Shown: positions 6,521-48,715 of the stretch, piece by piece
Layout: every line of letters starts with the position of its first letter
Numbering within the stretch: position 1 is the stretch's first letter
Source: Amphiscolops sp. MND2022
Lineage: Eukaryota
Assembly (NCBI GenBank): GCA_964187785.1
Contig: OZ076409.1
Span: forward strand, 25,608,001-25,672,000
Direction of reading: 5' to 3'
Length of the DNA stretch: 64,000 nt
Program-made: the position numbers and the translations under genes
Notes under the pieces: model-generated
What the model saw: the letters and a program-made list of their open reading frames with translations, nothing else
Database searches by the model: none
Told to the model about the DNA's origin: nothing

Positions 6521-6539
6521 GATCCCTCTGTGGTCGCCA
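6521..6539 (-). other. Primer-binding site, probably tRNA-Arg
   Basis: Minus strand TGGCGACCACAGAGGGATC is complementary to a tRNA 3' end ...GAUCCCUCUGUGGUCGCCA, which resembles animal tRNA-Arg(UCG). tRNA identity is from recall. Confidence 0.6.
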
Positions 6540-6544
6540 AAAAA

Positions 6545-24358: not shown

Positions 24359-24500
24359 TGTTATAGTTTAAGTAGTAATACGTAATTCTACTGAAAGTTC
24401 TGATACTGCTACTGTTTCAGGAATAAAGGGAAGCGAGACAAGAATCTATTTCTATGAAGACCATGTGGCAAAGTGGATGGGCCATCACTACGATGGTCTA
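24359..24500 (-). repeat. Gypsy 3' LTR, distal half
   Basis: Identical to 48404-48545; ends at the TA where the DNA transposon starts. Confidence 0.96.
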
Positions 24501-26007
24501 CATTACAGTGGGGTAACCGGCAACGAAAATGCAGATTTTACTCGTTGTGCGGCTCGGAAAATGATGGACATGAATGAATGTATGGGCCAAAAATGCCCAT
24601 TCGTTTCGCAGCCAAAACTGTTGCCTATTGATTTCCGAGGAAGCACAAGCTACGTATTGAGTTTCTTTGCAGGAGCGATGGCTTTAATTGCCCATGCATA
24701 CTCGTTGATGAGAGTAAATTGGGCAAGTAATTCCATCGCTTGCTCAAAGAATTTCAAGATTTAGATAGATCTGCCACTCGCTTCGGCCAATTCAATACAC
24801 TGCTTTGACATGGAAGTGTCTCAATATTTATCTACACATGCAGATTTTCAGTGTTCAGTTTTTGGTTTATCAAATTAATTCAGTTAAAATTAATTTAGTT
24901 ATCAAATTAAATTCTTAATTTTTTTTGACTAAGAAATATCAGCTCAACTATTATTTTCCCAGTATTTTAGGCGGGACAAATAAAATTGGCAATGACGAAA
25001 ATCTTCGTTCCGAAGCCGATATCTGCAGGAATATAACCCTAATAATTTTTTCGTTCCGGCCAATCACTGCAAGATTATTATCGTGATAAATTTTAGTTTA
25101 CTTTATTTTAATACTGTTTAATACTTAACTATTCTTTTCTTTTGTATATAATGGCAATTATGGTCGGGCAATTATGATAATTACAAATATTTTGATGTAT
25201 TATGATGTGTAGGTATATTATGATGTGTTAGTATGTAATTTTGATGTATTTCATTTTTTTGGAACTTATTAAATCAGTATTCTGTGAATCGTTTTTGTTT
25301 TGGGGCAAAAGAACAGTATAGTTGATATATAATACGAGTTTAAGTTTTTTCAATCATAACAAAAAATTGTTTGATAGTTGTACACTTACTACAGAAACAA
25401 CTTTATTCAACTATTCACCTTGATTGATATATATGGTTGTTTGATATTTATTAATTTAATTGGTATCCTGTGAATCGTCATTGATTTATTTATTGACAAT
25501 TAATCTAATCATCAAAAATCAGGATTCTTTGTTTTGGGCAAAAGAACAGTATAGTTGATATATAAAATGAGTTTAGGTTTTTTCAATCATAACAAAACAA
25601 TTGATTTTTTCATATTTATTAATTGAGTTGGTATCCTGTGAAACGTCATTGATTTATTTATTGAGAATTGATCAAATGATTGTTCTGATATTCACCATTT
25701 TTTCAAAGTGTGAACGTTCTTATCAGTTGTTAAAGTCAACGCTCCAAGAAGTGGAATGTTACTAAATGTTCAAAGTAATTTCACTTCCATTTTAGTGATT
25801 TAAGTGCACAAGTAAATCAGTAAGATTGTTGTAATACGGGAGCAAAAGTTTATTTGTTTTTCTGTTGATCAAACTACATGTAATCTTGATGAACGAAACC
25901 GAATACTCGCTTCTGATTGGACGAAATTCTTTCGTCGCATATTCCGATGAGGTCATATTGATACTGTGCGTGTAAAAGTTAGTCATTTGTTTTCAATTGT
26001 CATTGCC

Positions 26008-27098
26008 ATGTTAAAAACGTTACTTTTACGGATCCGGAAGCTGGACATTGAACTAGACGACTTACCGGACCATTTGAAACAGGTTAGAGTTAATCAGTTG
26101 ATTTATTAACTTTCAGGGTTGGCTTTTTAATACTTTGGTTTTAATAATTGCTTTCAAAATTTTTTCTTGATAAACGTTGGTGATTTCCTAAATAACATAA
26201 GAACAAACAACAAAAAAAAATTAGTTTCAAAACACAAAATTGAAATGAGTTTCACTAAACATACAAACGAATGCAAATAACATAAAAACAAAATTAGTGT
26301 CAAAGAACATAAAAATAAAACCGAATACCCGGTAAAACGATCGAACTCAGAAAATTTTATCTGTAATTTCCACACTTTTTTCAGTGAATCTTTTGAATTG
26401 TGTATGCTTTTGACCACTGATATTTTCTCATTAACAATTTTATTTTTATGTTTAGTGAAACCCATTTCATTTTAATGTTATTTGAAACTAATTTTGTTTT
26501 TATGTTATTTGCTCTTATGTTATTTGGGAATTCACCGATATTTCTTAGTCAAAAAAAATTAAATATAATGCTTATATAGAAATACACTGTTATTCTAATC
26601 TCAAAAGTTTTGCTCATTTGGTTGCCAGAAATTCGGTTACGGATATCAAAACGTGCCCATGGATTCCCGAGTTTTGGAAGGCCTTGTCGGTTACCCCACT
26701 TTAATGTAAATTTGGCAAATTTGTTGTTTTTTTTCAGCCCAAATTTAGGCCAAGCCTTCATCATGATAGAGAAGCCAGTACCGAAGCAGTTCTTCAAGAA
26801 CACCGCGGCGTTTCGACTGACAGAGATGAGCCAACCGTCTGTCAGAGTTAGTTTTTAACATGAACTTTTTGAAATCTTACATGTGTCTATGTTTTGACTA
26901 ATGCCCGCAGTTCATCAACCACTATTTGAACACATGAATAATAGGAAAACTAAATCCGAATGTTTCACGTTTGACTACGTTGCTGCAGGAAACGAGGAAG
27001 TTGAGACCGATGATGAACAAGTCACTCTCCAGGAGCACATTTTGACTGATAGGGATCAAATCAGCCTCCTCAACGATCCGACCGTCTGCCCCAGTTAG
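26008..27098 (+). CDS. Possible small three-exon gene (26008-26082, 26738-26846, 26989-27098), about 97 aa, unknown function
   Basis: GCCATG start; GT-AG introns with compatible phases (0, 1); exons 2 and 3 encode related peptides (VLQEH..TDRDEPTVCQ / TLQEH..TDRD..DPTVCP). No recognisable domain. Confidence 0.35.
26179..26536. repeat. Foldback/MITE-like element with ~90-bp imperfect inverted arms
   Basis: GGTGATTTCCTAAATAACATAAGA...TTAGTTTCAAA...TTTCACTAAACATA pairs with TATGTTTAGTGAAA...TTTGAAACTAA...TCTTATGTTATTTGGGAATTCACC. Confidence 0.65.
26684..26706. repeat. Internal copy of the large transposon's right TIR
   Basis: TTGTCGGTTACCCCACTTTAATG matches 43426-43448 at 21/23 nt, is preceded by the same CCGAGTTTTGGAAGGCC and is followed by TA. 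Confidence 0.9.
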
Positions 27099-27209
27099 TT
27101 CTTTTATATGATTCCTTGAGAGTGTTAATCGATATCTGCTTTTTGGAATATCCATTGGCATATTTTGAATTCAAAATTGACAAAGAAAACAAAACCCGAA
27201 GATAATATA

Positions 27210-27446
27210 CAGTAGTGATATTATTGAGAGCATCAAAAGGCAAATCTCAAAATCGAATATCTCTAAAACGGCAGTGGTTTATGAAAACTTATAAAAATAA
27301 ACGTATTCTAGATTTTTATCTAGTTTACAAATATGTTTGTTTGAAGATTTTTTCGAAAATACATGTTTTGGGATGACTTTGAAGTTTTTTTTTCACCTGC
27401 CGCAGACTTTGAAGCGGCTTTGTTGCTTTTAAAAATATCACCACTG
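27210..27446. mobile_element. MITE, Tc1/mariner-type ends (copy 1)
   Basis: TA|CAGTAGTGATATT...AATATCACCACTG|TA; same family as 37299-37478. Confidence 0.75.
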
Positions 27447-27535
27447 TATTTGACTAGATGACAATGACTAATATTCCAACAAAAATTATATAAAAACTGA
27501 TAAGTTAAAAACAAAGTTCGAGTTTATCAATGGTT

Positions 27536-29951
27536 TTACTCGGCATTACCGCCGAAAATTCTATTGGCTTCGGGGTCCATGTAATCAAACATCAGCTGCT
27601 CCAGGGGTTCAATTTTCCGCTTTGCAATAAGTAGCACGTAACGCGGATTATTTTTCAAGTATGTACATTTCAATTCGACCAGTTTCATGTTACAAGCTGG
27701 GTTGGTCTTTCCACCATCAAAGGTACTTGAGTAATTGCACAATCGAGCAAGGCACCTTCTGCCATCGTTGTGGATGGGGCATATTTCCGAGGTTGCATCA
27801 ATAATTCTTCCCGGCCTTGTTTTAACCTCGATGCAGTATTCTGGCTTGCGGTTCTCTGGGTCCAGACTGCAGTAGTAGTCGACGTTGTTCGTGTTTTCTT
27901 CTACATGTCCGTGGTAGTCAAAAATAACGTCATCCTTGTTAAATGGTTTGGTCGCGATTATTCCTCGACCCATTGTAGGATAGACAACATCGCAGACGCC
28001 TGGCCAGAATTGGTTTTCGCATCTATCTTTCAAGTCATCTTGGAAGTAAGGGGTATTGCAAAGTCTCCATTCTAGATTTGGATTGAATGCTTTTTTGCGC
28101 GAACTTTGTCGAGATCTTGATACCCCAGACATTCTAGAAGAAGCATCCATGACTCTCTTTACATCTGTGAAGTGGGGCCAGTTGACCAAGTTTGCAAAAT
28201 CGATTATTCTCTCTCTTTCTTTCGCAGGGTCAGCTAGTGATGTAGGGTAGTGGCTCTTGTATTCGGCCGCCCTAATATCTGCTCTTTGATGCCTAAGTGC
28301 TTGAATTCTTTTTTCGACTACTTTCATGACCGTTCTGTCATCGTAATGTCCGCTGGGCCTCAAATGTTTTTTGACTTCCATCATCAGGTAAGATTCAGAC
28401 CAAAATTCTTCTTCTGCTGAACATTTTGAAAGTGTCATCAGTTTGACAGTTCTTTCCAATCTGTCCATTTCACGTTCGGCTGGGTTTCTTGTCAAGTCGG
28501 AAAACTAGAACACGCAGATAGTTATTGAAATAAGCGAAAACTGCAAAAGGAAGATGTTTTTGATATTCCAACTTGTGATTATGTCTTATGGTTACTATCG
28601 ACTAATACAAATCAAACTGAGTCAAGTAATTCTTATCAAACAGTATTTGATTAGTTACCTGTTCAATCCGATTTCTTATGTTCCGCACTTTGAATTGTGT
28701 TTTTCCCCAGCTGTTGACAAAGAATGGCTCCGTCATGACGTAATATGGTGGTATCCCTTGACTGGGTGACTGCATGAACCTTTTTTTCTGGTCGATACCT
28801 TCAGGTTTTATGAAGTACGGTCGTACAGCTTCAAAATATATTAACATTGCTTCTCCAACAATGTGAGGAATTCTGAAGCTGTCCAAGTACCCAGCTTCAT
28901 CTTCAATTTGCAAGACTAACAAGTCACTTGAGTTAGAACTTCTATTGTGCTGAATTTGAGGGACCATTTGTAAAACGGCATGAGTTGTAATGCTCAAAAT
29001 TTTGCGATCTCTACACTTTGGAATAGAAAATTCCAGCAAATAAGCAATGAGGTCCCCAAACAAATTGGTTTTGTCAATGCTGGTTAGAGATTTTGCGAAT
29101 TTGAGTTGCTTCATTATGTCATAAAGGTCTGACAAGAGTCGCGCTTCAACAGTTGTGCATAATGTTAGGTGCACTGGGGTAATTTCTCGCAAATTTTTCT
29201 CATAGTTTTTGGGAACACATCGTTTACTTTTTGGGCCATGGTTTTCCTCATCATAATGGTTAAGTTTCCGCTTGTTCGCTATCTCCTGTTGGCATCTTTC
29301 CATGTTTGCCAAGGTGTCGTTGCAAGAACGGCTCAGCTGACTTGCCATGATATCACTCGGAGTTTGGCTCAGCTGACTTGCCGCGATATCACTTGAAGAA
29401 CGGCTCAGTTGGCTTGCCATGATGTCACTCGGAGTGTGGCTCGTACTGTCACTTGGGGTGTGGCTCCGTTGATTCGTCGTACTGTCACTCGGTGTGTGGC
29501 TCAGTTGATTCGTCGTACTGTCACTTGGAGTGTGGCTCAGTTGATTCGTCGTACTGTCATTCGGAGTGTGGTTCAGTTGATTTGCAGTGTTGATTAACAG
29601 AGGTGTCATTTGATTTGCAGCAAGTTGAGCTTGTACCATTATCGAGACGTCCGAAGGGCTATCTTCATAATTCACACCTTCTATATTAGAGATTTGTGAA
29701 AATATCCTTTGTTCAACTTGGGTGAAACTTGGCCAGCTTTTAGATGACACACTGGGTGATCCATACAACTGTTGTGTCGAACTAGATTGATCCAAGGGAG
29801 TACTCATGTAGTATGCAAAGTTGCTTTCATTCGGTTTAAATGGAGTCGAAAATCTTTCAAATGTTTCGTTTGGAGCAACAGAATTTGTCACAGCCGGGCT
29901 AGTCCCCAAGACAGTGTAAGAGAGAGATTTCTCATGTTGAGGAGGGTTCAT
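27536..29951 (-). CDS. SET-domain protein (SETD8/PR-Set7-like C-terminus); predicted exons 29951-28659 and 28504-27536, about 753 aa
   Basis: SET motifs GRGIIATKPFNKDDVIFDYHG, IIDAT, LARLCNYS, LLIAKRKIEPLEQLMFDY. A phase-0 intron (CAG|GTAACT ... TTCTAG|TTT) joins the two ORFs in frame. The N-terminal part has 12-aa Ser/Thr-rich repeats. Confidence 0.8.
29325..29585 (-). repeat. Coding 36-bp minisatellite (NQLSHTPSDSTT-like, about 7 units)
   Basis: GTGTGGCTCAGTTGATTCGTCGTACTGTCACT repeats in frame within ORF 28602-29951. Confidence 0.85.
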
Positions 29952-30566
29952 CGTTATGTAAAAGAGACTGTTTTCTAGCTACTGTTTGGATTGAATGGTG
30001 AGTGCTCAATCCTTTCCTTGAGCGATCCAAATTCGAACTAATTCAAAGACGCTTCGTCAATCAACTGTGGTATATTATAATTAAAGAAAAATGGTGATCT
30101 TCGTATTAAATAGTACATATATGATAATTATTCATTTCTGATAATGAATTATTTAATTATTGAAAAAAGTAGTACATACCGTTGGTAATAGCTTTGCGGA
30201 TGTGCTATTTAGATTTGCATGAAGATGAGCTCATTTAAGGACGCTTTTCAAATCAACTGTGGTGATAATTACCTGATGACGTGCGAACCTTCAATTATCG
30301 TTTCAAAATAGGGGATAAAAACCGAAGTATGAAATAACGTAAGCTAATTGGCATAAAATGAATTGAACTTTCGCCCATCCGTTTCCGAGTGATGAAAAGC
30401 AATGAAAAAGCCATGTATTTCTGCGTTTCAAATTGCCCATGCGTTTCCAAGTCTTAAATGGCATTATCATTTTGATGATTTGTTCGGATATCTGAAATAG
30501 AATTTAAAATGTCGAATTTTTTTCAAACATGTTTTTCACCAATACTAATCGGAATATGTGTTTCAG

Positions 30567-33500
30567 AATGCCGGAGAAAATTCAGCGAAAAAGTTGCGTG
30601 CCAGAGGCACATGTACAAAGACTGGGCACCAAGGAAGAGACCTGTTGAAGAACACCAGCTGGAGTTCACCTGCATTGCACAAAAAATTTACAGTCGGGCA
30701 AATTTTATTTGTCGCTTTTGTGGATGCGGCGAGAAAGACGGAGGACCGTTCTTTAGCTATCACAGGACCGCTCAACACTCCCTCGGAAGAACTTGCACCC
30801 TGAAAGTGTTTGAGTTGCAAAGGGAGGAATGGTACCCAGGAAATTTGTTGGAACCAACACCAGAAAACATCGAGGAATTGTGCAAGGAAAGTTCTGCTTA
30901 CGATTGCCTGAAGCAAAAATACAAATCGTTTTATCTTAAAGGGGAATCAGCTGTTCTTAAAAAAAAGCCCAAAGGCAATGTGCCAGGAGAGTACAGCTGG
31001 TCGGAAAAAAGACGGCGGGAGGGGAAAGGTTATTCCCATCGAATCAAAGACCTGATTAAAATCAAAGGGACCCCAAAGAAGAAGATCGAACACCCACGAT
31101 GGCAAGCGAGGATGGATTCGAGAAGAAGAAGAGAACAGAGAAGGACGTCACGTCGGTACCGTCGAGTTCACATCGAACCAGATTCTGACAGCGATGAAGA
31201 AGCCCTCCAGGAAAAGACCTGTGAGGAAGACGAAAGTGAAGAAGAAGTAGCCACACACGTTCGCCAAGGTACAATAAAATCCTATCGTTTTACTTATATC
31301 AATTTTTCGACATACCAGTTTGACTACTTGCCAAACGATTCCACTGATACTTATCGAAAATATTCGAAAAACATCCACAAATCTTCTCAATAACTTTATG
31401 ATGATTTTGACGATTTTTGTTTCAGATTCCGACAGCAATGAAGCCCTCCAGGAGGAGACCTATGAGGAAGACGAAAGTGAAGAAGAAGTAGTCACACACT
31501 TTCCCCAAGAAGAGAACCGTCAAGAAGACGAAAGTGAAGAAGAAGTAGCCACACACGTTCGCCAAGGTACAATAAAATCCTATCGTTTTACTCATATCAA
31601 TTTTTCGACATACCAGTTTGACTACTTGCCAAACGATTCCACTGATACTTATCGAAAATATTCGAAAAACATCCACAAATCTTCTCAATAACTTTTTAAT
31701 GATTTTGACGATTTTTGTTTCAGATTCCGACAGCAATGAAGCCCTCCAGGAGGAGACCTATGAGGAAGACGAAAGTGAAGAAGAATCAGTCACACACTTT
31801 CCCCAAGAAGAGAACCGTCAAGAAGACGAAAGTGAAGAAGAAGTAGCCACACACGTTCGCCAAGGTACAATAAAATCCTATCGTTTTACTCATATCAATT
31901 TTTCGACATACCAGTTTGACTACTTGCCAAACGATTCCACTGATACTTATCGAAAATATTCGAAAAACATCCACAAATCTTCTCAATAACTTTATGATGA
32001 TTTTGACGATTTTTGTTTCAGATTCCGACAGCAATGAAGCCCTCCAGGAGGAGACCTATGAGGAAGACGAAAGTGAAGAAGAAGTAGTCACACACTTTCC
32101 CCAAGAAGAGAACCGTCAAGAAGACGAAAGTGAAGAAGAAGTAGCCACACACGTTCGCCAAGGTACAATAAAATCCTATCGTTTTACTTATATCAATTTT
32201 TCGACATACCAGTTTGACTACTTGCCAAACGATTTCACTGATACTTATCGAAAATATTCGAAAAACATCCACAAATCTTCTCAATAACTTTATAATGATT
32301 TTGACGATTTTTGTTTCAGATTCCGACAGCAATGGAGAAGCCCTCCAAGAAGAGAACCGTCAAGAAGATGCAAGTGAAAACGTAGCCACACACGTTCGCC
32401 AAGGTATAATAAAATCCTATTGTTTTTCCTATATCAATTTTTCTACACCAATTTGTGAACTACTTGTCAAACGATTCCACTGATACTTATCGAAAATATC
32501 CGAAAAACATCCAATCTTCTCTAACATTATAATGATTTTGACGATTTTTGTTTCAGATTCCGACAGCAATGAAGCTCTCCAAGAAGAGAACCGTCAAGAA
32601 GATGAAAGTGAAAAAGTAGCCACACACGTTCGCCAAGGTACAATAAAATCCTATTGTTTTTCCTATATCAATTTTTCTACACCAATTTGTGAACTACTTG
32701 TCAAACGATTCCACTGATACTTATCGAAAATATCCGAAAAACATCCAATCTTCTCAATAACTTTATAATGATTTTGACGATTTTTGTTTCAGATTCTGAC
32801 AGCAATGGAGAAGCCCTCCAAGAAGAGAACCGTCAAGAAGATGCAAGTGAAAAAGTAGCCACACACGTTCGCCAAGGTATAATAAAATCCTATTGTTTTT
32901 CCTATATCAATTTTTCTACACCAATTTGTGAACTACTTGTCAAACGATTCCACTGATACTTATCGAAAATATCCGAAAAACATCCAATCTTCTCTAACAT
33001 TATAATGATTTTGACGATTTTTGTTTCAGATTCCGACAGCAACGAAGCTCTCCAAGAAGAGAACCGTCAAGAAGATGAAAGTGAAAAAGTAGCCACACAC
33101 GTTCGCCAAGGTACAATAAAATCCTATTGTTTTACCTATATCAATTTTTCTACACCAATTTGACTACTTGTCAAACGATTCCACTGATACTTATCGAAAA
33201 TATCCGAAAAACATCCAATCTTCTCTAACTTTATTATGATTTTGACGATTTTTGTTTCAGATTCCGACAGCAATGAAGCCCTCCAAGAAGAGAACCGTCA
33301 AGAAGATGAAAGTGAAAAAGTAGCCACACACGTTCGCCAAGGTACAATAAAATCCTATTGTTTTACCTATATCATTTTTTCTACACCAATTTGACTACTT
33401 GTCAAACGATTCCACTGATACTTATCGAAAATATCCGAAAAACATCCAATCTTCTCTAACTTTATTATGATTTTGAGGACTTTTGTTTCAGATTCTGACA

Positions 33501-36120
33501 ACGATGAAGAAGCCCTCCAGGAAGAGATCTGTGAGGAAGACGAAAGTGAAAAAGAAGTAGCCACACACGTTCGCCAAGGTACAATAAATTCCTATTGTTT
33601 TACCTATATCATTTTTTCTACACCAATTTGACTACTTGTCAAACGATTCCACTGATACTTATCGAAAATATCCGAAAAACATCCAATCTTCTCTAACTTT
33701 ATTATGATTTTGACGATTTTTGTTTCAGATTCTGACAACGATGAAGAAGCCCTCCAGGAAGAGACCTGTGAGGAAGACGAAAGTGAAGAAGAAGTAGCCA
33801 CACACGTTCGCCAAGGTACAATAAAATCCTATCGTTTTACTTATATCAATTTTTCTACACCAATTTGCCTACTTGTCAAACGATTCCACTGATACTTATC
33901 GAGAATATTCGAAAAACATCCACAAATCTCAATAATTTTATAATGATTTTGACGATTTTTGTTTCAGATTCCGACAGCAATGAAGCCCTTCAGGAAGAGA
34001 CCTGTGAGGAAGACGAAAGTGAAGAAGAAGTAGCTACACACGTTCGCCAAGGTACAATAAAATTCAGTTTTCATAAAATATTGTTTCTCAGTTATTTGTT
34101 AAAAGAGATGAAAGGTAAAAAGCAAAAAAAATCAAAAAATCTTTACTTTTAAAATTAAAATCGGATTGAGTTAATTTTTAAAAAAATCGGATTTTGTTCC
34201 ATCCATGTGTTCAAGGCAGTTTTACTAATACTTGTGCATATGTGTTTTTAGACACGACTTCGACTTGTTTACCTATATCAATATTACGTATCGAAAATAT
34301 TCGACAAACAACCAATCATCTCAATAACGTTAAATTGATTTTGACGATGTTTGTTTCAGATTCTGACAGCAATGAAGAATCCCTCCGGGAAGAGAACCGT
34401 GAGGAAGACGAAAGTGAAGAAGTAGCCACACACAATCCCCAAGGTACAATAAAATCCTATTGTTTTACCTATATCAAAATTTCTACATACCAATTTTACT
34501 ACTTGCCAAACGAATCCACTGATACTCATCAAAAGTATTCGAAAAACATCTACCAATCATTTAAAAAACTTTATTATGATATTGACAATTTTCGTTTCAG
34601 ATTCCAACAGCTACGAACAGGTTCAAGCAGAAGACGAAGAAGTTTCTCTGGTTGCATTTGTGGATGAAGCAGAGCATCATGAGCTGCTGGATGTAATCAG
34701 AGAATCTTCCGGGTCCGAGATGCGAGTTTGCTGCACCAATGTTACCAGCAGCGAAATAGAGGAGGAGCTGCAGCGGAAAAGAGCCTGTATTGTTCGAGGA
34801 CATATGGATGGTATGAAATTGCCCAACATCAACTTTGGAGCGCGAAGAAACATCTTCGAAGACTGTCTACACGCAGAAGATGTACAATTATCTGTCCGAA
34901 TGTACAAACCTGTCAGTGTTCGTTTTTGGCTTCGTCTTTTTAACTTCACCAATGAAAACCGAACATTTAAAAAATATTAGGGTTTTTATATTTTAAAACC
35001 AAAATTGTAGATCTTCGAAGTGTATTCTTTTTTCATATACAACACATGTCTATTTCAGCTGCAAAAACTCCTGTGTTTGACACTCTCAGGAAAAGATTTT
35101 GTAAAAGCCATTGAGTTTGGAGCTATGAGCGGCCCAATGAATGTCCTTGATCTTAGCTCCAGTCTCACAAAGAACTTGCATTTCGATGTACCAACGGCAG
35201 TTAAAGAACTTTCAGTGTCTCATTTATTCAATTTTGAGCTGGAGCAAAATTGCTATATTCTTCTCAGTCAAAAAGGTTCCATTACACCTTGGCATGTTGA
35301 CTACACGAATACCAGCGTCTTTTACCATCTTCTTCACGGTAAAAAAGAGTTTTTCATGATTCCTGGAACAGTTCGAAACCAAGAAATTCTCGAGAATTGG
35401 TGCATTGAGGCAACAAAACAAAATGTTTTCCTACCAAGTGACACCCACCTCCAAAGTCAAGTGTTTAAAGTGACGATAACAGGCGGCGAGTCAATGATCA
35501 TGCCAGCAGGCATGATACATATGGTCAGAACCTGTGCGGACAGCGTGGCCGTGGGATTCAATTTTCTCACCATCTGTGATCTAGGTAATTTTGAAATTCA
35601 GTTTTCATATAATTGTTTCTCAGTTGTTTGTTAGAAGAGATAAAAGGTAAAAAGCAAAAAAATCGAAAAAATCTTCATTTTTAAAATTAAAATCGGATTA
35701 AGTTAATTTCTCAAAAAAATTCGGGTTTTACTTCTTCTATGGGTTCGAGGCAGTTTTACTAATGCTTGTGCATATATGTTTTTAGACACGACTTTGACTG
35801 TTTACCAGAGGGAACGGGACAATGATGAACCTCTTGAGAAATGTTTCCCACATTTCTTATCGTTAATGACGAAAGTTATTCTAGAGAGTGCCATTGGGAA
35901 CTGTAGGCTAATGAAATGGGAGCTTCTGGCCAAAGCACTACATGTCCTCAGCTTCAATTCCAAAAATGACAGCCGATCCAAGAGCAATCGACGAAAATTT
36001 GTGCAAACTATCAACCGGTACATGTCTCTCAATTTCCCAAACAGGAACATATCATTAACTCACCTATTTCAAATTGTTGACAAAAAACTCGGTCGAAACA
36101 CTTTTTGGTCTCTTGATTGA
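30567..36120 (+). CDS. JmjC histone demethylase-like protein (KDM2/KDM7 type) with Cys/His-rich N-terminus and long acidic linker; at least 16 exons, about 1000 aa; start unresolved (ATG 30509 or an upstream exon)
   Basis: JmjC core YILLSQKGSITPWHVDYTNTSVFYHLLHGKKEFFMIP...MPAGMIHMVRT..DSVAVGFNFL with intact HxD...H triad. Exons 30567-31268, twelve repeat exons, 34601-34911, 35059-35584 and 35786-36120 join in frame at GT-AG sites. Confidence 0.85.
31180..34600 (+). repeat. Tandem array of exon+intron units (298 bp x3, then mostly ~231-241 bp)
   Basis: Unit: TTTGTTTCAG|ATTCCGACAGC...CACGTTCGCCAAG|GTACAATAAAATCC. Exons 31426-31566, 31724-31864, 32022-32162, 32320-32403, 32557-32637, 32793-32876, 33030-33110, 33261-33341, 33492-33578, 33729-33815, 33968-34051, 34360-34443. 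Confidence 0.92.
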
Positions 36121-36521
36121 TTAGTTCGTTGAAAACCATTTTCGAGATAAAATTTTTTGTTTTACATATTCTTAACCTTTATTATTTTATTTCATTGTAT
36201 TGATATGTATTATTATTAAATCTCGAAACTTGTTTTCAGCGAAGTAATTCAGCACTTGATGCAATTTCGCAGTTTACTGTAGTAATACTTTAGAATTTTG
36301 AATTCCAGTTCTTGGTCTTTGAAAGATTTGGTTTTATTCTTTCTTTTCGGTTCTTACTTAGTATTTTGCGCTGCTACTTTTTGGTACGTTTCTATTTTGA
36401 ATTTGTTTAAAACAATTCGAATGATTCAATTAAATTTTGACAATAAAAACAGGTAAAAATAATTTATTATTGTTCGAATCAAAGTTTTCACGATTTATCA
36501 ATTATGATTATCAAATGATTC

Positions 36522-39500
36522 TCAGTCTGATGAGTCTGAGGATGATTCATCGTGTTCTTTCTGAGCGTCATTCATTTTTTCTTGTTCGCGCTTCTTCAGC
36601 ATTTCTCGTCGTTTACGAAGTACCGATGTTATAGCTGAAGTTGTGTTTTGTAGTTCGGGATTCCTCTGAAGAAGGAAAATTTTGCGATGATCACGAACAG
36701 AAGTTGATGGGATGTCTGGCCCTGGTTTGAACGCAAAAGACTCCACATCCAAAATTGTTGAAGTTTCGATACTTTTCAAAATATAGTCAACGGATAGAAA
36801 CGTAAGTCCACGACTGGCCAAGTGTCGTAAAACGTAACTGGTTCGACTTGGTTCATTTAGTTTCCTTTTTTTGCATTTTCCTTTGGCCATAACTTCTGTC
36901 ACTTGTGGCAAAGAATCACACGACGTTGTTGCACTAATAAGATCTGTGTCATTTTGGAGAACCACGTAAATGTGTGGCAACTTGGAGTGTCTGGAGAGGA
37001 GAGTATTCAATGCTGCTCGTTCTAGAACTTTCCCTCCCGCTTTTTTGATAACTTTTTTGAGACACTCAGCGGGTCCAAGAGTTTTTCCATCTTGGTTTTC
37101 ATGTTGAATTCGTTGCTCTTTATTGAATTTCCCGTGCAGAAAGAATCTCGATCCTGGAGCAAACGGAATATTGTTTAGTTCTGTGAAAACAATTGGTTAT
37201 ATACCGAACTTCGAATATGTAACAACAGGTTTCTAAGGTGGTCCTTCCATTGCCGAACGTGCTTATTGCCGTATAATTCTAAGACGGTTTTGCATGTACA
37301 GTAGTGAGATTATTAAAAACTTAGTATTTTCGAAAACGCCTATTTTTACAGCGTGGTTTCATTGAGACTTTAATATAATTTCTCAATCAAAACATATCAA
37401 GTCCTTCAGTCAAATGCTTTTTGATAGATATTTGATTCTAAAATTTGCCTTTTGTTGCTTTTAATAATATCACTACTGTATTCTATTTTCTTTGCTACGA
37501 TCGTTCTGAACAGGTATGTAATTGCATCATTCAAAACTCACTGTTAAGCGAAGAACTAATTGCAAATAATAAGTTGAAAACATAAAAATAAGTAGATTGA
37601 GATTGGATTTCTCTCTCCGCCAGAGAGAATTCCAATCTCAATCTACTCACTAATTGCCACAGTTGTTGAATGCGCGGTCGTCACCGGCAATCGACATCTA
37701 TGGCAAGTAATACCAGCCAATGGCTACCACACACAATACCAGACACAATACCAGCCACTGGTTACCGAAGGCTGCACCAACAGCGGCGCAGAGAAGCGAA
37801 CCTGTATACCAAGAGCGAACGAGCGGCGGAACGACGGAACGTCGCACGAAGTAACCACTACGCCAGTGGTACTTGGAATCTGTTGCTGTTTTGAGGAAGT
37901 ATTTCATCCGAGTAACTTAGGACTAATATTTGTCAACGTGTTGCGGTGCAATACAAATATTCAGCAAAACTCAAGTCAAACATTTGTTCAACGATCCACT
38001 ACATTTATTTCGGAGTCGCAAGAAAAGCAAAATTCACACTATATTGTTGGTTTATCCAACTAAATTTCGCTAAATTTATACCACTTAGGTTTCATAACCA
38101 AAAAAGTTGGACGTGGGCATATAGGTACAAAAAAAATCCTTACCCAAGAAAAGGCGGGACTTCTCTCGAACTTTTCCAACGGGAATGATGGCTTTCTCAG
38201 TTGGTCCCAGGGAGTCTAAAAAAGATAGGTTCACCTCTATGGGTTCATTGAAAAGCCGTTGATGGCAAAGTGAGAGCTGTTCGTCGATTGTGCCTTCCAA
38301 AGTCGAAAACCGGAGACCAGAACAGAAAGTGAAAAACATTTCGAGAAACATGGGGTCGGCGTGTCGAACTGTCCCTCCCCCTCGCATGGTCTTTTGCTGA
38401 AAGTCTCTATGGACATGATGATTTGATTTTTCGGGGCCTTCGCACAGGTGGTTAAAGGGTGATTCAATGTAGCCTCCTTCTAACAGCTGGGGAATCAGGC
38501 ACAGTTTCAGTCTGTACGGTGTCAAACCTAGTTTTACATCGAACAGTACAATCGAAATGTGATAGTGGATTTCTGACCAGTATTTATAGTCGGAAAAGTC
38601 CTGTTCTTCGAATTTCTTCCTCGTCCTCATCAGCACGGTAAGCTGATTTAGTGACTTTCTCCAGAGTTCAGCTGCAACCAAAAGTTTCATTTGACATGGG
38701 CTTTCGATATTTTCGAATGAATTGGGATGAAGATTTTTCAACACATTCATGCTTGCACTTTTTGTACCCGACAAGGCTCCAACAGTCTTGTTCTCGGAAA
38801 AAACTCCTTCGAACAGTTCATGCTGAACACCAGCCTCAGCAAGTTCGTACATATCAGCAATGCCAGTGATAGCTTCTCTGCCACTAAGGGAAATGGGAGC
38901 ACATTTTTTGTTGCGTTTGTCAATGTCAAATTCGAAGCCAGGCTCTTTCCAACCTCTCTCGGTCAAATTGCGCTGAAAATTTTCCCTAATATAATCAACT
39001 GTAGCTGAGTCATCTTCAGATTGGAGAATTTTCAACTCCATGAACTTTCTAATGTCTCCCTCGACACACCTTGTTATTGCATGAGTGCCGTCGGGACAAA
39101 CGCATCTGATGTCTGGCAAAAACGTCAAACTTTCATGAGGAATGGTGGTTCGAAATGGTAGGCGAACATCACCTCGATGTCCACTTTTTTCGTGCACGGT
39201 TTCTGGTTTAACTGAATCGTCATTCCCTAGATACATCTGCAATTTTGATGGATTTTCTTCACTCTCCATGTGATCAACAGAGGTTCCAATGAGAAGGCGA
39301 TTTAGGAATGGTTGATCTCCACTGTATGTTAAAAGGACTCCGGCGTCATGGAGTTGTTTCGTCTGCTGGTAAAGCCAAGAGGAATCTTGCTCACCTAGTT
39401 CCAGGTACCCGACATTTTGCTCTAGCAACCAACGACCGTCGTGACCTGTAAACACGTATTGTAAAGTGTGCGAAGCTAACCTAGAGCTAAATTATATTTA

Positions 39501-40489
39501 AAGATTCAGCAGGACAAAATAGCAGAACATACCTTGGAAAACAGCAAAAGAGAAGAGTGCATCTGATGACTGATTGCTGATAGATGTTCCTTCGAGAAAA
39601 CGGAAGGCCATTCGAGTTTGATCCTTTTTCCCTATTTGAACACCATCTCCCCAAATATCAACTTTCAGACCTTGCAAATCAGTTCTTCCTTTGAACAGAA
39701 TGAATGTCATGACTTTGATAGCACGTACAAGATCAATTCTGAATCCCGAGAAAGTGTTTTTTGGTTTGAATAGGGATATAAACTTTGAAATCATCGGTTT
39801 TGACATCTCTTTGATCGCCGTATAACCAGGAATTAGTTGTTTTTGACCCAGTCCATCGACATGGAAAGTTTTTTTCAGCGTGTTGATCATATTTATCCAA
39901 CTACCAGTTTTAGTACAGATAAATATGTCTGACTTCAGCTTTTCGTACGATAAATAGTTTGAAAAAACACCCTTAACCAGAGCCTTGGCTTCAAACTGAT
40001 GCAGAGAGGTCTTCTGGGCCTTAGTATGAATCCGCTTTTGTTCTGTAGCTGCTAATGTTGCGAGAATTGTATGCATCTTCTGACTGAAACCTGATTCAGG
40101 TTTAGAAAACTGCTCCACTGGGATTGTTGGCATTGGAAGTGGATTGACAAAAGGTTGTGAGTCGGGAATTAGCTGCGGCGTATTTGGGAAAAAATAGGAC
40201 ACGTATCTTCTTCGTAATTGTGTCCATGGAAACCCACTTTGTAAACCACGAACAATTATTATTTGCAATATTCCAATTGCAACAAAGCAAGTTTTTTTTT
40301 GTTTATTACACAATCTTCGAGTTTTAATTCAGTTCCTTCAATTACTATTTCGATCGCGCTTTTCAGTTTTCGAGATTTTTCTCTTATAATATGCCCAGCA
40401 AAAACATCCAAAATTTTAGCATCCACAAAACTTTTTCCATCAATTGTTTCAGTGTAATCGTGCAGAAGCTTCTCGGGGTGTATTGTCAT
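36522..40489 (-). CDS. RAG1/Transib-like DDE transposase with probable C-terminal BRCT exon; predicted exons 40489-39533 (1-nt shift at the T9 run 40292-40300), 39445-38144, 37180-36522; about 970 aa
   Basis: Ordered motifs VDIWGDGVQIG (D1), YSGDQPFLNRL (D2), CPDGTH (DxxH), LTPYRLKL and CEGPEKSNHHVHR (E) parallel RAG1 CDGM, GYDEKLVR, IDALH, ITNYFHK and SEGNESGNKLFR. Both introns are phase 1 with GT-AG ends. The last exon has BRCT-like RFFLHGKF...LKKVIKKAGGKV...FLSVDYILKSI. Confidence 0.72.
37299..37478. mobile_element. MITE, Tc1/mariner-type ends (copy 2), in the predicted transposase intron
   Basis: TA|CAGTAGTGAGATTATTAAAA...TTTTAATAATATCACTACTG|TA; 19/20 TIR match. Confidence 0.8.
37591..37647. 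other. Near-perfect hairpin, 26-bp stem and 5-nt loop
   Basis: AGTAGATTGAGATTGGATTTCTCTCT-CCGCC-AGAGAGAATTCCAATCTCAATCTACT; one mismatch. Confidence 0.9.
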
Positions 40490-40594
40490 CCTGATTGTCG
40501 TACGTCGAAAGTTATATTGGAAGTTATTCTAGTAGTTGTTGTTTTTTCAAAAGCGTATTGACACTTTATCGTTTCCACACTAGCGTTTCCACTC

Positions 40595-40930
40595 TTGAAA
40601 TGCGTCTGCTGGTTCGCAAAGCGTTTGACAAAAAATTATAAAATTATCGTATTACGTTATTGATGTTATTGATTATATCGGAAATAAATCGAGTAATTGT
40701 AGTTTTAGCGTGTTCACACTCACGTGGATTTTGAAATGCGTCTGCTTGATCGAAAAGCGTTTGACAAAATATTATAAAATTATCGTATTACGTTATTGAT
40801 GTTATTGATTATATCGGAAATAAATCGAGTAATTGTAGTTTTAGCGTGCTCACACTCACGTGGATTTTGAAATGCGTCTGCTTGATCGAAAAGCGTTTGA
40901 CAAAAAATTATAAATTTATCGTGCTACGTT
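40595..40930. repeat. 136-bp tandem repeat (about 2.4 copies) between divergent transposase and Tudor-like genes
   Basis: TTGAAATGCGTCTGCT starts at 40595, 40731 and 40867, with near-identical units. Confidence 0.9.
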
Positions 40931-41198
40931 TTGGATGTTCCGTGCAAAAGTGTCTGGGGGTTTATTGTCATTTAAAATGCGTCTGACAATTAATTAATAT
41001 GCGTCTGACATTTAAAATTCATCTTATGCGTATGTAACGATTTGAGTCGATCAAACTCACTTGATAATCATTTGTCCCGATAACGATTTTATTTGCTCAA
41101 ACTTGCTTGATAAACATTAGTGGCAAATGCAATACTGAAAATACTCGTTTACGAAATTAAATTTCTTGAAAAATAAAGCACTAATTTCATTAATTGAA

Positions 41199-42767
41199 AT
41201 GGATTTCATCAGTGTTTTTGATATGAAAGAGCAAGTTCAAGTTTTGTATCCTGCAACAAAAATTTGGGAAGATGCTCGCATCATTGGGTTTGAAGGATCA
41301 TTTGGAATCCGAGTGAAATACCTCAATTGGCCCGATAAACTTGTGAAGCGATTCGGATCAGACAGAATTGAAGTGTCCCCCAACACACCCCAAAATTGCT
41401 GGCCGGTTAGAAAATGTATAGTATTACAAGATGTCCGCGGTCGCCGGAAATCCAAGAAGCCAGCAGAAACCGTTTTTGACATCCCCGACCCAAGAAAGCG
41501 CCAACTAGGGGACAGAATCTTTTTCACTGGGACATCACGGAAATCACCAGCGGACATTCCTAGTTTGGAAGAGGTTAGAAAAGATGCCGAGGAGTCGAAG
41601 CTGCTGAACTCGGGTTATGTTGTCATGAATGACCCATTCCAGCAAAATATGGCTGTTTCCTTCGACGGGCGCACAAAGGACATCCAGTTCATCGACTATG
41701 AACAAATTCGTCCGAAGAACTGGACTCATCCTGACACGAGGCAGCCTTCAGAGTTTGATTCGGAGCCCGAAGATGTCCAACCATCGCGGCAAAAAAAGAG
41801 AGTAGTAGAAACAGATGCAGAACCAGAACCCACTATAACCACTCCCAGACAGAAAATTGATATTGCCGCATATATTGCGAGTCTTGCCGAGAAAGACGAA
41901 CTTCTGGACATTGTACCCTGCGAAAATGGTATTGCATCAGCAGGTAAATGATCAATTTGATTATTACTAGTCTAACTTCTACGGTACTAAAAAAAATCAA
42001 ACAAAAAAACTGAAACCAAGTTTTTTGCCACGAGCGTCCTCTCGAAAAATTTACATGCTTATAGAAACTTTGTCGCATAAATCTTTCTCAAGTGGTTAAT
42101 AAATTATTATTACTAAATGAAACTGAATATTCGCATTCTGTTATCAGGTGACCACGTTACGATAAACATTAGGAGCACGGTCTTCACGATGAAATTGGAG
42201 AAGATATGGTTCGACGTGGAGATGAAGAAGGCCATGGCGAAACTGGTCGATGAAGAAGACAGATGCTACTCCATCACTTACCCAGCTGTAAAGCTAGTGT
42301 TGACAGAAGCAAACTACATGAAGCAGAAAGCTCTGGACTTGTCCGCAGCTTGTTCACCTGTGAATAGAGCTTTTCATTACCTGTCAGCTCTGAAACGTTT
42401 GGTCGGGATATCCCAGTCCAAACGCACAATGATGAATCAGGACATTTGCTTGGTTGACGAAATTTCCAAGAATATCTTTTTAATGGGTTCTGGACACCAA
42501 GTCAAATTTCATATAGATCCTGACTCAGAAAAGTTCCACAAAAATGCAGAATGGGACAGTACCCTAGGCCGACAATGGGATATGCTCCCACCAATCTTCC
42601 CTAAAACTTTCTGCCACATTATCAAAAGCCTAAAATTTTCAATTAACAACGATTTTCTGCTGAAAACTGTGCGAGTATCTATCGATTGTTTCCAGGACAA
42701 TTTAAATGGCGATGACGAATATCGTCGTTCCGCAGCCAATAATTGCAGAAGTCAGTTTAGTTTTTAA
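41199..42767 (+). CDS. Protein with N-terminal Tudor/chromo-barrel-like domain; exons 41199-41943 and 42148-42767, 454 aa
   Basis: FDMKEQVQVLYPATKIWEDARII...IRVKYLNWP matches the F..G..V....W..A.I....V.Y.GW Royal-family pattern. A phase-1 intron (CAG|GTAAAT...TATCAG|GT) joins two long ORFs. Confidence 0.6.
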
Positions 42768-43448
42768 ATTTATTCATTTTTTGTATCCATTGCCATAACA
42801 ATTGTGATATCTTTTCCATTATGTTTCTTAATTGAATCAGTCTCTTGTGAATCATTTTGTTTTCGATTTGGGGCAAAAGAACAGTAGTGGAGCGACATTG
42901 TAATAATTGACAACAATAACATTAAACAATTGAGTCAAACAAAAAGTAATGAGGATTAAATTGTTCAAAAAGACAAGCCCCCGGAAAGATCTTATGATAC
43001 CAATCTAGTCTTCTTGTAATCTCCTAATCTTCCTATTGATTGATATATAGTATGAGTTTAAGCTTATTCAATTATATTAAATGAGAGTTGTTCGATTTAA
43101 GGTGGAATGATGAGAAGCATGGAAGCTTGATAATCATTATTCAAATTTATTTCGAAAAAAAGTACCTGGGAAGGGTTTACTAAAATTCTGATAATCGGCA
43201 AATCCTTATCTTTAGTTGATTAGGTATATCTCGGACATTTTTTGATATGTATTCAAAGTTTCTATCAAATTGAAAGGCCACACTTGGTGGGAAACGAATG
43301 GACAGATTATGTTCAACAATTAGTTGACTTCGCCCATGCGTTTCCGAGATTTTCAGTTATGAACAACAAAACTCGCCCATGCATTCCCGAGTTTTTGCCC
43401 AACATTTTCCGAGTTTTGGAAGGCCTTGCCGGTTACCCCACTGTAATG

Positions 43449-43620
43449 TATAATGTTGCTGGTATCTAATGTACAAATATATATATCAACAACTACAAAC
43501 ATAAGACTGCCATTAATTGGTCACTTTAATTAATTAGATTGCAGTCACTTCAGTTTTAATAGATTGTTTTGTATTGCTCTTTTCTATTGTTTTGTTATGA
43601 CAGTTTGTAGCCCCGTTACA
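43449..43620 (-). repeat. Gypsy 3' LTR, proximal half
   Basis: Matches 48544-48715 except for one substitution (TTTTGTTATG vs TTTTGGTATG). Confidence 0.96.
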
Positions 43621-43629
43621 TTCCCCTCT
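43621..43629 (-). other. Polypurine tract
   Basis: Minus-strand AGAGGGGAA directly before the TGTAAC start of the 3' LTR. Confidence 0.8.
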
Positions 43630-43705
43630 GTTCGATTCTTGACGAGCTCTGTGATTTGGGTTCAACATAAATATCTTTGGGCTTTGACTAGTGCAATTTA
43701 CTTGT

Positions 43706-46700
43706 TTAGTTTTCGTCACTCGAGATTGTGATTACCTCTCTTTCTCCTTCTTCGTTTGTGTTTTCTATTCCACATATCATGACCGGGTTTCCATAGTAGT
43801 CCGGTGTGGTGCGGTTTCTTTTTGGTCGTTCATTGCTTGTATCTGTTTCGTTTTCACTTCCTGGTTCTTCTTTTGTCGGTTGTGGTTTTTCCCAGTTGAC
43901 TGTTGCTTTTATTGGTGTTTTTGGTGGGTTTGTTTGTTTTCTTTCATTTCTTCGTTGATCGTTTTCTTCTTCGTCTTCTGACTCTAATAGTTCTCTCCAA
44001 TTTGCGAGACGTTTGAATTCTGTTGGGATTTTCTTCTCTCTTCTTTTCTTTGTGTTTTGTTGTTCGTTGGTTTTGGTTTGTTTTATGTCCTTCTTGTGTT
44101 GTGGTGAATTCGTGTGTTTTGATTGGTTGCTTTGTTGGACCAATTGTAGTGGCTTCGCTATTTCACGTTTGCTGAATGTTTGCGCTGTTGATTTTCCACT
44201 TTCTTTCATTGTCAGCGTATGCTGTATTTCGCCTGTGATTCGTCCTTTCTTTCGCTTGTAGACTTCTTCTAGTTTTGAGCCCCGTGCTCTTTCTCTGACC
44301 ATTATTTCTGAATCTTGTTCTTGGGGAAAATCACTCATCTCCAGTTCGAAGTCTTTGTCGTTATCTGAAACAGAATTGTAGTTTGTAGTTGGTTTTGTAG
44401 TTATGATTTCTTTGATTCTAGTTAATTTTCTCCCTAGTTGTAGTTCCGCTGGAGATACGTTATTACTTTTTGGTGCATTTCGTATTGAGTATAATATTTC
44501 TGATAGTCCGGTATTTTCTTTATCCAGTATTATTCTTTTGTTGGTTCTCAGTCTTTCGTTTATTGTGCGTATAAGTCTTTCTACTTTACCATTACCGCGG
44601 TGATCATATATGGGGCATTTTATGTGTTGTATAAAGTATTTTTGACAGAATTGTTTAAATTTGTTACTTGTAAATGCTGTTCGCGGATCTGTTCGAATTT
44701 TTCTTGGGATGCCATTATCTGCAATATATCTTTCGAGGAATTCTATTACTTTATTAGTAGTTGGGGCTCGCATAAATTTTGCGTCCGGCCAGCCTGTTTT
44801 ACTGTCGATTGATACTATTAAGTATTTCTTTGAACTTTTTGCTATTTTGAATGGGCCAGCGAAGTCTATTGCAATTTCTTCATCTACTTCTTTTGGTGCT
44901 GGTAGTTTGCCAAATTGTTTTTGATTTAACATTGGTTTTATTGACTTACCTGCTGCTCTGCATTCTGGACATGTTTTGGTAAGTAGCTTAATGTCTCTGT
45001 GTATCTTTGGCCACCAAATATCGATAATTTGCCTTAACATTTGGTCACGTCCGGGGTGGCCCCAATGTAGCGAATTTTTGATGGGAGTCTGTAAGTTTTT
45101 CGGTATTATAAGACGATCATCCATGTAGAGTAAGTTATTTTCATCAATGGAGATTGAATTAAATCTCTCTCTCCACGGGCTTTCCAGAGCTTTGATTTTT
45201 GCTTTTGTAGGACTTTTTACTAATTTGATTAGTTTTTGTAGGTTTTCGTCATCGTTATAATTTGCGATAAGCATGTTTTCACCAATTTTGTTGGCTATTT
45301 CAACTTTCGATTCAAATTGCTTTGAGATTCGTTTACCTGCTAATGCGTTTGTTGAGTTGTTCTGTCCCATTTTGGTCAGTTGCGTTGTTTGCTTGCTCGC
45401 GTGTGTTTGTTCACTCTTGCTGCGTCTATCTTCGCGGTTGAGTTTCAACCATTGTCGTCCTCTGATTGGTCGAGTGAATTCTTCAGCTAAAATACTATTT
45501 ACATTATTTACATGGTTCACTGTGAACCAGTTGTTCCATAATTCTTTAGCTTTTACGCTTTCTCCTTCTATTTGTGATGGATGGCGTGAAAGGTAGTCAG
45601 CTATGCCAATTGTTCTTCCAGGTGCGTGGAATATGTCAAAGTCAAACAATAGTAGTCGATCTACCCATCGAGTGAGTCTACTCGAGTAGGTTTTATTGCC
45701 TTTATTTCCTTTCAGCACTGTTGCTAGTGCCTTGTGGTCTGATACCACTTGGAATTTTATTCCGTATAAGTAGTTTTTAAAATGCTCAATCGCCCATACA
45801 ACGGCGAGTAGTTCCAATTCGTTTATGGAATAGTTTTCTTCTAGTGGCGTTAAAAATCTGGATGCGAAATGTATTGGTCTCCATCCAATCTCGTCTTGTT
45901 GTTGTAGTACAGCGCCTAATCCGGCTTTACTTGCGTCGCATATTATTCGGATATTTTCGCTTTTCTTGAAGTGTCCCACTTCTGTTACTCTTTTTACCTG
46001 TTCGTTTATTTCTTTAAAAGCTTTTTCGTGTTTCTCCTCCCAGTTCCATGTTTTATCCTTTTTTAGTAAAGGTCTTAGTGGAAAGCAAAGTTGGGCTAAA
46101 TTCGGTATAAATCTGTTCATCTGGTTTACAGCTCCCAGATAAGAACGTAGTTCCTTTAGATTTTTCGGTCTAAGTTTTTCAGTTATTGCTTGTATTTTGG
46201 TGTTTATTGGGCTTATTCCATTTTGGGTTAATTTATATCCCAACCATTCAATTTCTTTTTGTGCTAAATTACATTTTTCCCATTTTAGTCTAACGTTAGC
46301 TTTATTTAGCTTTGTTAATACTGTTTTTACCACTTTGTAGTGATTTTCTTTTGATCCTTTTGTTACTACAAGGGATATCATCTAGGAATACGTACGTGTT
46401 GGGGATGTTTGCTAATTCGGTGTCCATGGCTTTTTGGAACTCGGTTGGCATTACTGTTAAACCGTAAAAACCTGTTACAAATTTGTATGTTCCAGTAGCT
46501 TTCCCTCCTATTATTTGGAAATTACAGTGTTTTGCTGTTTCTTTATTTAGTGGCTCTTGTCCGTACGCGTATTGCATGTCAAGAGAAGTATACCATGCTA
46601 TTCCTTCGTTTTCTGTATCTAATTGTTCTGCTACCATATCGACAAGGTGCTCTAGATTCGGCATTTGGTATTTATCTTTTACGAGTTCTTTGTTTAATGC

Positions 46701-48404: not shown

Positions 48405-48715
48405 GTTATAGTTTAAGTAGTAATACGTAATTCTACTGAAAGTTCTGATACTGCTACTGTTTCAGGAATAAAGGGAAGCGAGACAAGAATCTATTTCTAT
48501 GAAGACCATGTGGCAAAGTGGATGGGCCATCACTACGATGGTCTATAATGTTGCTGGTATCTAATGTACAAATATATATATCAACAACTACAAACATAAG
48601 ACTGCCATTAATTGGTCACTTTAATTAATTAGATTGCAGTCACTTCAGTTTTAATAGATTGTTTTGTATTGCTCTTTTCTATTGTTTTGGTATGACAGTT
48701 TGTAGCCCCGTTACA
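48404..48715 (-). repeat. Gypsy 5' LTR, 312 bp, intact
   Basis: TG...CA ends, followed by the CTAAT TSD; equals the two 3' LTR halves joined at a single TA. Confidence 0.96.

Follow-up and report, generated by a model that had tools for sequence, protein, structure and literature searches.

What, if anything, is encoded by an array of near-identical exon-intron units that looks like a satellite, and how did such an array grow? We addressed this question for a 64,000-nucleotide (nt) window of Amphiscolops sp. MND2022 (contig OZ076409.1, positions 25,608,001 to 25,672,000; coordinates below are those of the window), in which the array lies within a gene containing a JmjC domain, and this gene is itself carried by an 18.9-kb DNA transposon. 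At a probability of about 60%, we favour the reading that the array would encode a constitutively spliced, loosely constrained polyanionic linker in the KDM2/KDM7-type JmjC cargo of a RAG1-fold transposon. The gene and its array comprise the following parts.

29995..30261, forward strand: possible 5' exons, predicted from sequence only (ATG at 29995 followed by GT; exon 30213-30261)
30567..31268, forward strand: large exon with Cys/His-rich domain, basic segment and unit 0
31269..34600, forward strand: whole array, 13 homologous phase-1 introns and 12 symmetric exons
31426-31566, 31724-31864 and 32022-32162, forward strand: three 141-nt exons, an 84-nt unit with an internal 57-nt duplication
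32320-32403 (84 nt), 32557-32637 (81 nt), 32793-32876 (84 nt), 33030-33110 (81 nt) and 33261-33341 (81 nt), forward strand: five middle exons
33492-33578 (87 nt), 33729-33815 (87 nt) and 33968-34051 (84 nt), forward strand: exons of a type resembling unit 0
34360-34443 (84 nt), forward strand: final and most diverged array exon
34601..34911, forward strand: exon that opens with a unit remnant and runs on towards the JmjC region; identical open reading frame (ORF) on 27 contigs
35059..35584, forward strand: JmjC core of KDM2/KDM7 type (Pfam JmjC, E 1.1e-9)
35786..36120, forward strand: last exon, with stop at 36118-36120 and ATTAAA at about 36215

A motif scan combined with translation resolved 12 internal exons, in the order 141 (three times), 84, 81, 84, 81, 81, 87, 87, 84 and 84 nt. 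The TTTCAG acceptor and the AAG/GTA(C/T)AA donor are present in all of them (12/12), every length is a multiple of three, and the common frame is stop-free in 12/12 while the other two frames hold 1-4 stops each, which bears out the initial annotation's description of twelve phase 1-1 exons with intact AG/GT borders. The array is not a product of chance, because Tandem Repeats Finder scored it at 2163 (period 298) and at 3061-3154 (periods 237/473). A 13th unit, unit 0 (31182-31268), forms the 3' end of the large exon from an internal CAG/ATTC onwards, exon 34601 opens with a remnant of the unit, and the donor and acceptor outside the array are near-copies of the inner ones. The introns are homologous throughout (13/13) and measure 150-157 nt except one of 308 nt; most other introns of the element are similar in size (148-201 nt). 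The 308-nt intron (intron 11) holds an 87%-identical copy of a downstream JmjC intron together with its acceptor (34060-34273 versus 35594-35806), and this acceptor, if used, would lengthen exon 34360 in frame by 114 nt. The copy consists of the last intron of the JmjC gene plus about 20 nt of the following exon, with short shared sequence at both joints, as in template switching, and the start of intron 11 is common to 25 contigs.

The exon 30567-31268, the 12 array exons and the exons at 34601, 35059 and 35786 join into one open frame of 1015 amino acids (aa) over 16 exons. The array contributes 1176 nt, or 392 codons (D+E 39%), matching the roughly 390 aa of acidic repeats previously placed between the Cys/His region and the JmjC domain. 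Because the frame of the conserved large N-terminal exon stays open up to its donor, and no start is evident within the JmjC exons themselves, the array is probably coding, as had been suspected despite its satellite-like appearance; it is this continuity of the gene that argues for it, a stop-free single exon being weak evidence (P 0.19-0.43 in dinucleotide shuffles, four exons tested). All 14 PDB matches of the JmjC core (14/14) are KDM2A, PHF8, KDM7 or PHF2 (E 5e-18 to 1e-9), the best being KDM2A (E 5e-18) and PHF8 (E 7e-18). In the alignment to KDM2A the Fe(II) ligands H-x-D...H and the 2-oxoglutarate lysine are intact, and among the matches listed (15/43 cluster members) H-x-D is found in 14/14 covering members and the distal His in 12/12. 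A Pfam scan of the gene product found no PHD, CXXC, F-box or LRR domain above threshold. The basic segment carries a net charge of +20 over 84 aa and adjoins the acidic part, a spacer of 421 aa with 40% D+E, a net charge of -139 and 24 CK2-type S/T-x-x-D/E sites. The product is thus predicted to be, probably, a demethylase-like JmjC protein with a floppy acidic spacer lengthened by repeated units.

The AlphaFold model of the Cys/His exon has a predicted local distance difference test (pLDDT) score of 40.5, at which its fold is not readable; the best Atlas match of this domain (0.87) is a lead only, and its alignment found none of 8 candidates in metagenome contigs. No longer relatives of the JmjC exon were found among 180 candidates. 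By itself, exon 34601 matched no KDM protein in the databases, and its sole matches, to designed repeat proteins, were judged spurious.

Two other functions for the units were considered and rejected. Five array introns (32404-33728) are multiples of three with only TGA stops in the exon frame. Their use as coding introns by TGA read-through was discarded: P0292, which reads through, is a gene-caller product under table 4, with TGA as Trp, the remaining eight introns shift the frame, and shuffled sequences not infrequently stay open (P 0.07-0.16). A structured RNA in the unit was discarded as well, the array having no Rfam match and two introns and two exons folding with z scores of -0.4 to -1.3.

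The units themselves record how the array grew. In a four-gamete test on units 0-10, incompatible site pairs amounted to 57/255 between exon and intron, 13/136 within exons and 2/105 within introns. The periods of 298, 237 and 473 nt correspond to single-unit and dimer steps, the most diverged units are those at the array edges, and the introns after both 87-nt exons (I9 and I10) are of the middle-block type, so that these units are mosaics. Mosaic units, dimer periods and edge divergence form the pattern of unequal crossover and conversion, in line with the stepwise unequal crossover first proposed from the clustering of unit types. A possible starting point is the junction CAG/ATTC(C/T)(G/A)ACAGC, which is found at the intron acceptor as well as within the large exon: misaligned recombination there would have duplicated the exon tail and the intron and yielded a symmetric exon automatically. 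Later unequal crossover and gene conversion would have built and homogenised the array, aided by the dozens of near-identical copies of the element. Because the duplicated segment contains one whole intron, the flanking phases are always equal, and the 1-1 symmetry is not independent evidence, since every intron copies one phase-1 intron.

The same unit types recur in other copies of the element. Exact unit ORFs were found on 30 (P0280), 28 (P0209), 27 (P0293), 26 (P0312), 26 (P0313), 25 (P0281), 25 (P0321) and 23 (P0278) contigs, and look-ups did not find the exact ORF of the last array exon. Copies were compared through gene-caller ORFs, with up to 15 members listed per cluster; the cluster holding P0298 and P0312 also contained unrelated Planctomycete proteins, a clustering artefact, and the rest of it was ignored. 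From these counts the 12-exon layout appears largely shared by the young family. Among the listed proteins, three have multi-site recombinant junctions, all in frame, and lend further weight to unequal crossover: P0201 is an exon-1 tail with a 141-type extension, in P0214 a late-type intron comes after a 141 exon, and P0292 has an 81-type exon at the place of the window's second 84-type exon. P0289 and P0294 were rejected as recombinants, one base change sufficing for each. The length variation observed lies in the DNA, between transposon copies.

Two further subfamilies place these units in context. In the second (20 members), the N-terminal part is identical at 186-193/205 aa (about 91-94%), and the same intron accompanies its own unit type, of which at least two or three copies lie in tandem (P0269, P0349); against the window, the unit is identical at 22/29 aa and the intron read-through at 30-35/38. 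The JmjC ligands are kept in both close subfamilies. In the distant subfamily the large-exon domain is 42-47% identical, and the same exon ends in a different, Thr/Asp repeat of variable in-frame length before a phase-1-like donor.

Comparison among the units suggests what is being maintained. No stop occurs among the 28 variant codons (0/28), exon indel events are multiples of three in 3/3, and pN/pS among units is 0.45; judged from these sequences, the frame is kept and the amino-acid sequence appears only loosely constrained.

The array belongs to an element with the following limits and transposase.

24501..43448: whole DNA transposon, 18.9 kb, at TA, with terminal inverted repeats (TIRs), TA on both sides and an empty site
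24501..24523, forward strand: left TIR, 23 nt, starting CATTACAG; TA at 24499-24500
43426..43448, reverse strand: right TIR, identical to the left; TA at 43449-43450
36522..40483, reverse strand: transposase with RAG1-fold DDE core and C-terminal BRCT (47% in tblastn with P0001; BRCT E 3e-6)

Its termini, CATTACAG...CTGTAATG flanked by TA, give 5'-CA..TG-3' ends and a 2-bp target-site duplication (TSD). When joined, the flanks equal an uninterrupted sequence at 48535-48560, which represents the matching empty site. On the left, the flank reproduces the end of a Gypsy-type internal region over 142 nt with 100% identity; on the right, it consists of the Gypsy long terminal repeat (LTR). As the flanks join into uninterrupted sequence, the whole 18.9 kb was inserted as one unit, after the Gypsy-type retrotransposon, whose LTRs differ at 1/172 nt (99.4% identical). 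The element is young, of the cut-and-paste TIR type and, judging from exact cargo ORFs on up to 30 contigs, multi-copy. The Gypsy-type target (24359-24500 and 43449-48715) is itself young and tandem with a shared LTR, its left unit being only 142 nt, cut at the gag start.

The transposase has introns near 39525-39445 and 38142-37155. Its fold was compared through the AlphaFold model of P0001 (pLDDT 85), the closest full-length relative, 47% identical to the window's protein. This model matches RAG1 with a Foldseek E of 1e-7 and a VIA Z of 16.7 (root-mean-square deviation 4.7, 426 aligned), followed by BbRAGL (Z 16.0), Transib (10.8) and the P element (10.6), and it carries a BRCT domain at its C-terminus. 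Conserved acidic positions in GDxPF and ExxEKSNH, together with a GDG motif, fit a DDE triad; we take them to map onto the corresponding RAG1 residues. Transposase relatives numbered 201 at E up to 0.001 (50%-identity representatives). A Pfam scan of 18 of them found BRCT in 5/18 and a transposase family in 0/18, and a PDB profile search found no transposase. Among 21 interval-spanning homologues, CxxC occurs in 1, H(3-4)H in 1 and both in 0/21, and no zinc-motif column is conserved in alignments A1 or A5.

Several observations weigh against the favoured reading. Exon units differ by a p-distance of 11.4% and intron units by 7.7%, so that the comparison of exon with intron divergence called for at the outset gave no sign of stronger constraint on the exons. 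None of the signs of coding selection reaches significance: the multiple-of-three indels (3/3 in exons versus 3/6 in introns; p = 0.24), the synonymous excess (7/28 events; p = 0.25) and the absence of stops among about 30 substitutions (P = 0.20). The GTA(C/T)AA donors lack the +5 G that is present in 3/6 other donors of the element, and the 5' exons of the JmjC gene are uncertain predictions. Some copies are broken, by deletion of the exon-1 donor (P0195, P0202) or by frameshifts (P0196, P0200, P0233, P0261), and the window's own transposase is frameshifted once, in an A-run near 40300. Finally, more than one assembly or haplotype may have entered the contig counts of 23-30, and individual recombinant units could reflect misassembly.

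One alternative is that the array is a non-productive minisatellite, skipped as one long intron or mis-spliced, with the cargo effectively a dead hitch-hiker. The excess of exon over intron divergence, the same tendency between subfamilies (22/29 aa for the unit against 30-35/38 for the intron read-through) and the broken copies all speak for it. The frame, however, is intact in 12/12 exons and in unit types on 23-30 contigs, the JmjC ligands are conserved in both subfamilies, and in the distant subfamily a low-complexity tail, also in frame, has arisen independently at this position; skipping would moreover demand that the spliceosome pass over 12 donor/acceptor pairs that are nearly the same as the outer pair. 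We consider this alternative unlikely.

A second alternative, which we regard as improbable, holds that selection acts on length and charge as such: the polyanion would be a histone chaperone or a mimic of DNA, engaged in an arms race against silencing by the host, while recombination among copies explores lengths. A net charge of -139 adjoining a +20 basic segment, independent repeat expansion in three subfamilies and exon change faster than intron change would all fit. Against this, the number of 36-nt repeats in the element's SET-domain gene (below) also varies in frame, which suggests that the element as a whole is prone to such mutation; pN/pS among the units stands at 0.45, not above 1, and the tail of the distant subfamily is Thr-rich and far less acidic.

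Least probable is the regulated skipping of exon subsets that would tune the linker per cell, in line with the tunable, skippable linker of the initial annotation: all exons are symmetric multiples of three that keep the frame, the donors are sub-consensus and a cryptic in-frame acceptor, from the JmjC intron copy, lies 114 nt upstream of exon 34360, but the symmetry is a by-product of one-intron duplication, near-identical splice signals across units leave little for regulation, no stable RNA structure was found in the two introns and two exons folded, introns of about 150 nt with adjacent GT-AG pairs are usually spliced in order, the exon sequence is not more constrained than the intron, and the length variation seen is in DNA between copies.

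Under the favoured reading of a constitutively spliced linker, the product would present a disordered polyanion of about 420 aa between the basic segment and the demethylase domain. It would most likely act by charge (PMC10250230 covers the general principle), either damping the basic DNA/nucleosome-binding segment or loosely holding histones. As only frame and composition appear to matter, drift affects both the number of units and their precise sequence. The element itself would most likely benefit from its JmjC and SET cargo, as these enzymes would rewrite histone methylation across its copies. The other parts of the element are as follows.

27536..28504, reverse strand: exon 2 of the tyrosine-recombinase (YR)-like/SET gene, SET domain closest to SETD8/KMT5A (Pfam SET, E 2.5e-8; acceptor at 28504)
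28659..29951, reverse strand: exon 1 of the same gene (ORF), in-frame 36-nt repeats followed by a tyrosine-recombinase-like region
41199..42767, forward strand: companion gene, placed head-to-head with the transposase; its two ORFs are probably spliced together
26664..26706: internal copy of the right end of the element, 93% identical
27210..27446: small miniature inverted-repeat transposable element (MITE), TA-flanked, with CAGT termini
37299..37478: related TA-flanked MITE with CAGT ends, within a transposase intron

The SET domain matches SETD8 in 13/13 PDB hits, but weakly (E 6e-5 to 6e-4), and has NYS in place of NHS. The tyrosine-recombinase-like region is a lead only (Atlas 0.93; Phage_integrase in 13% of members, DUF3504, NDC10_II), and it seems to lack the catalytic His and Tyr of the motif. 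The number of 36-nt repeats in this gene differs in frame among copies.

The companion gene occupies the same head-to-head position in the relative L001 and is also present in L006 and L008; it has no match in Pfam, NCBIfam or PDB, and the resemblance of its N-terminus to a Tudor/chromo-barrel was dropped when Pfam and PDB gave no support. In L001 a PLAC8-family gene with a Gln/His repeat (5886-6887, reverse strand) replaces JmjC as the convergent neighbour, and because of this gene in the convergent position, cargo probably varies among relatives. Eleven metagenome loci (1.1-7.4 kb, too short to exclude them) showed no SET or JmjC match and no such TIR. Candidates were negative in viral contigs (JmjC 0/5, companion gene 0/7, transposase 0/54) and in prokaryote genomes (transposase 0/31), and PDB profile searches with alignments A3, A4 and A6 gave nothing significant.

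Within the element, 24501-26706 looks like an older non-autonomous deletion derivative with a long imperfect palindrome at 26158-26560. A 76-nt inverted repeat (27198/37490) was rejected as the element ends, as it represents the two separate MITEs; the transposase intron with the MITE at 37299-37478 also holds a near-perfect 26-nt hairpin (37591-37647). Between the divergent transposase and companion genes, a 136-nt unit is present in 2.5 tandem copies (40595-40939). Elsewhere in the window, a host POU-homeodomain gene (18171-19067, reverse strand), presumably of class POU4, lies at a distance of about 5 kb from the left end of the element; from this gene the host was judged to be an animal. 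Gag-like ORFs that include a zinc knuckle (1197-4225, reverse strand) come from another retrotransposon, and diverged tandem repeats of 186 nt (12341-13491) and 31 nt (15283-15492) occur.

How do these features compare with known systems? Tandem exon duplication, in which genomic duplication yields adjacent homologous exons and introns, is well known (PMC9013439). The present array likewise has homologous neighbouring exons with homologous introns, but PMC9013439 connects arrays of this kind with mutually exclusive exon choice in host genes, whereas here the array is transposon cargo on 23-30 contigs and nothing indicates mutual exclusion. The array mechanism itself is ordinary, and the novelty is carried more by the element. 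The JmjC core resembles those of KDM2A/KDM2B (JHDM1), PHF8, KDM7A and PHF2, with H-x-D...H and the 2-oxoglutarate Lys aligned. The gene differs from the KDM2/KDM7 proteins in yielding no PHD, CXXC or F-box match in Pfam, in joining an unassigned Cys/His domain to a basic segment and an acidic spacer of 420 aa, and in being mobile and multi-copy.

For the transposase, the reference is the CMCT clade, which comprises Transib/RAG1, Chapaev, EnSpm, Plavaka, ESTA and Lanisha and has as its hallmarks the motifs C(2)C and H(3-4)H, termini of the CA..TG form and TSDs of 2-5 bp (Kojima 2025, PMC12730594). Our element shares with it a RAG1-like fold, DDE-like motifs, 5'-CA..TG-3' termini and a short TSD, but is without the C(2)C and H(3-4)H motifs and has a C-terminal BRCT. 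Because the fold and ends match but the zinc motifs are absent, we file it as RAG1-like and adjacent to CMCT, not as a member. It differs from Transib, which has a 5-bp TSD and termini resembling recombination signal sequences (PMC4411706), in its 2-bp TA duplication. ESTA elements, with fungal (rust) members, TA TSDs and TET/JBP chromatin-enzyme cargo (PMC12730594), are similar in TSD and in the kind of cargo, and differ in that our host is an animal and the enzymes are JmjC and SET; this comparison is by description only. Enlarged EnSpm elements of 16-20 kb are cited in PMC6431247.

Anti-silencing cargo has been described for VANDAL, the SET-bearing HarbingerS and MuDR elements of Phytophthora and fungal TET/JBP elements (PMC12730594). 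Like these, our element is a DNA transposon with a chromatin-modifying enzyme gene; unlike them, it unites a SETD8-like writer with a KDM2/7-like eraser, in an animal genome. The term JmjC has 0 occurrences in the main text of PMC12730594, and a literature search over titles and the beginnings of abstracts, with Repbase Reports and most subscription papers outside it, returned no JmjC-bearing animal TIR transposon and no RAG1-like transposase with BRCT. A bolder reading, which we offer as a tentative and rather doubtful possibility, is that giant DNA transposons of this kind may form a lineage of animal elements not yet classified, with a BRCT-bearing transposase of RAG1 fold that has no zinc motifs, and with a working chromatin kit: a writer resembling SETD8, which is fused to a recombinase-like domain, and an eraser resembling KDM2/7. 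The copies of the element would recombine whole exon-intron units into erasers of differing linker charge, selectable for escape from silencing.

The locus offers a view of exon-intron architecture as it evolves within a mobile element, and the dozens of young copies serve as natural replicates in which unequal crossover, conversion and the tolerance of linker length can be measured. It also adds a structural relative of RAG1 without the zinc motifs that define its clade, and an animal case in which histone-modifying enzymes borne by a transposon can be put to the test; in the literature consulted, this theme has so far been mainly one of plants, oomycetes and fungi.

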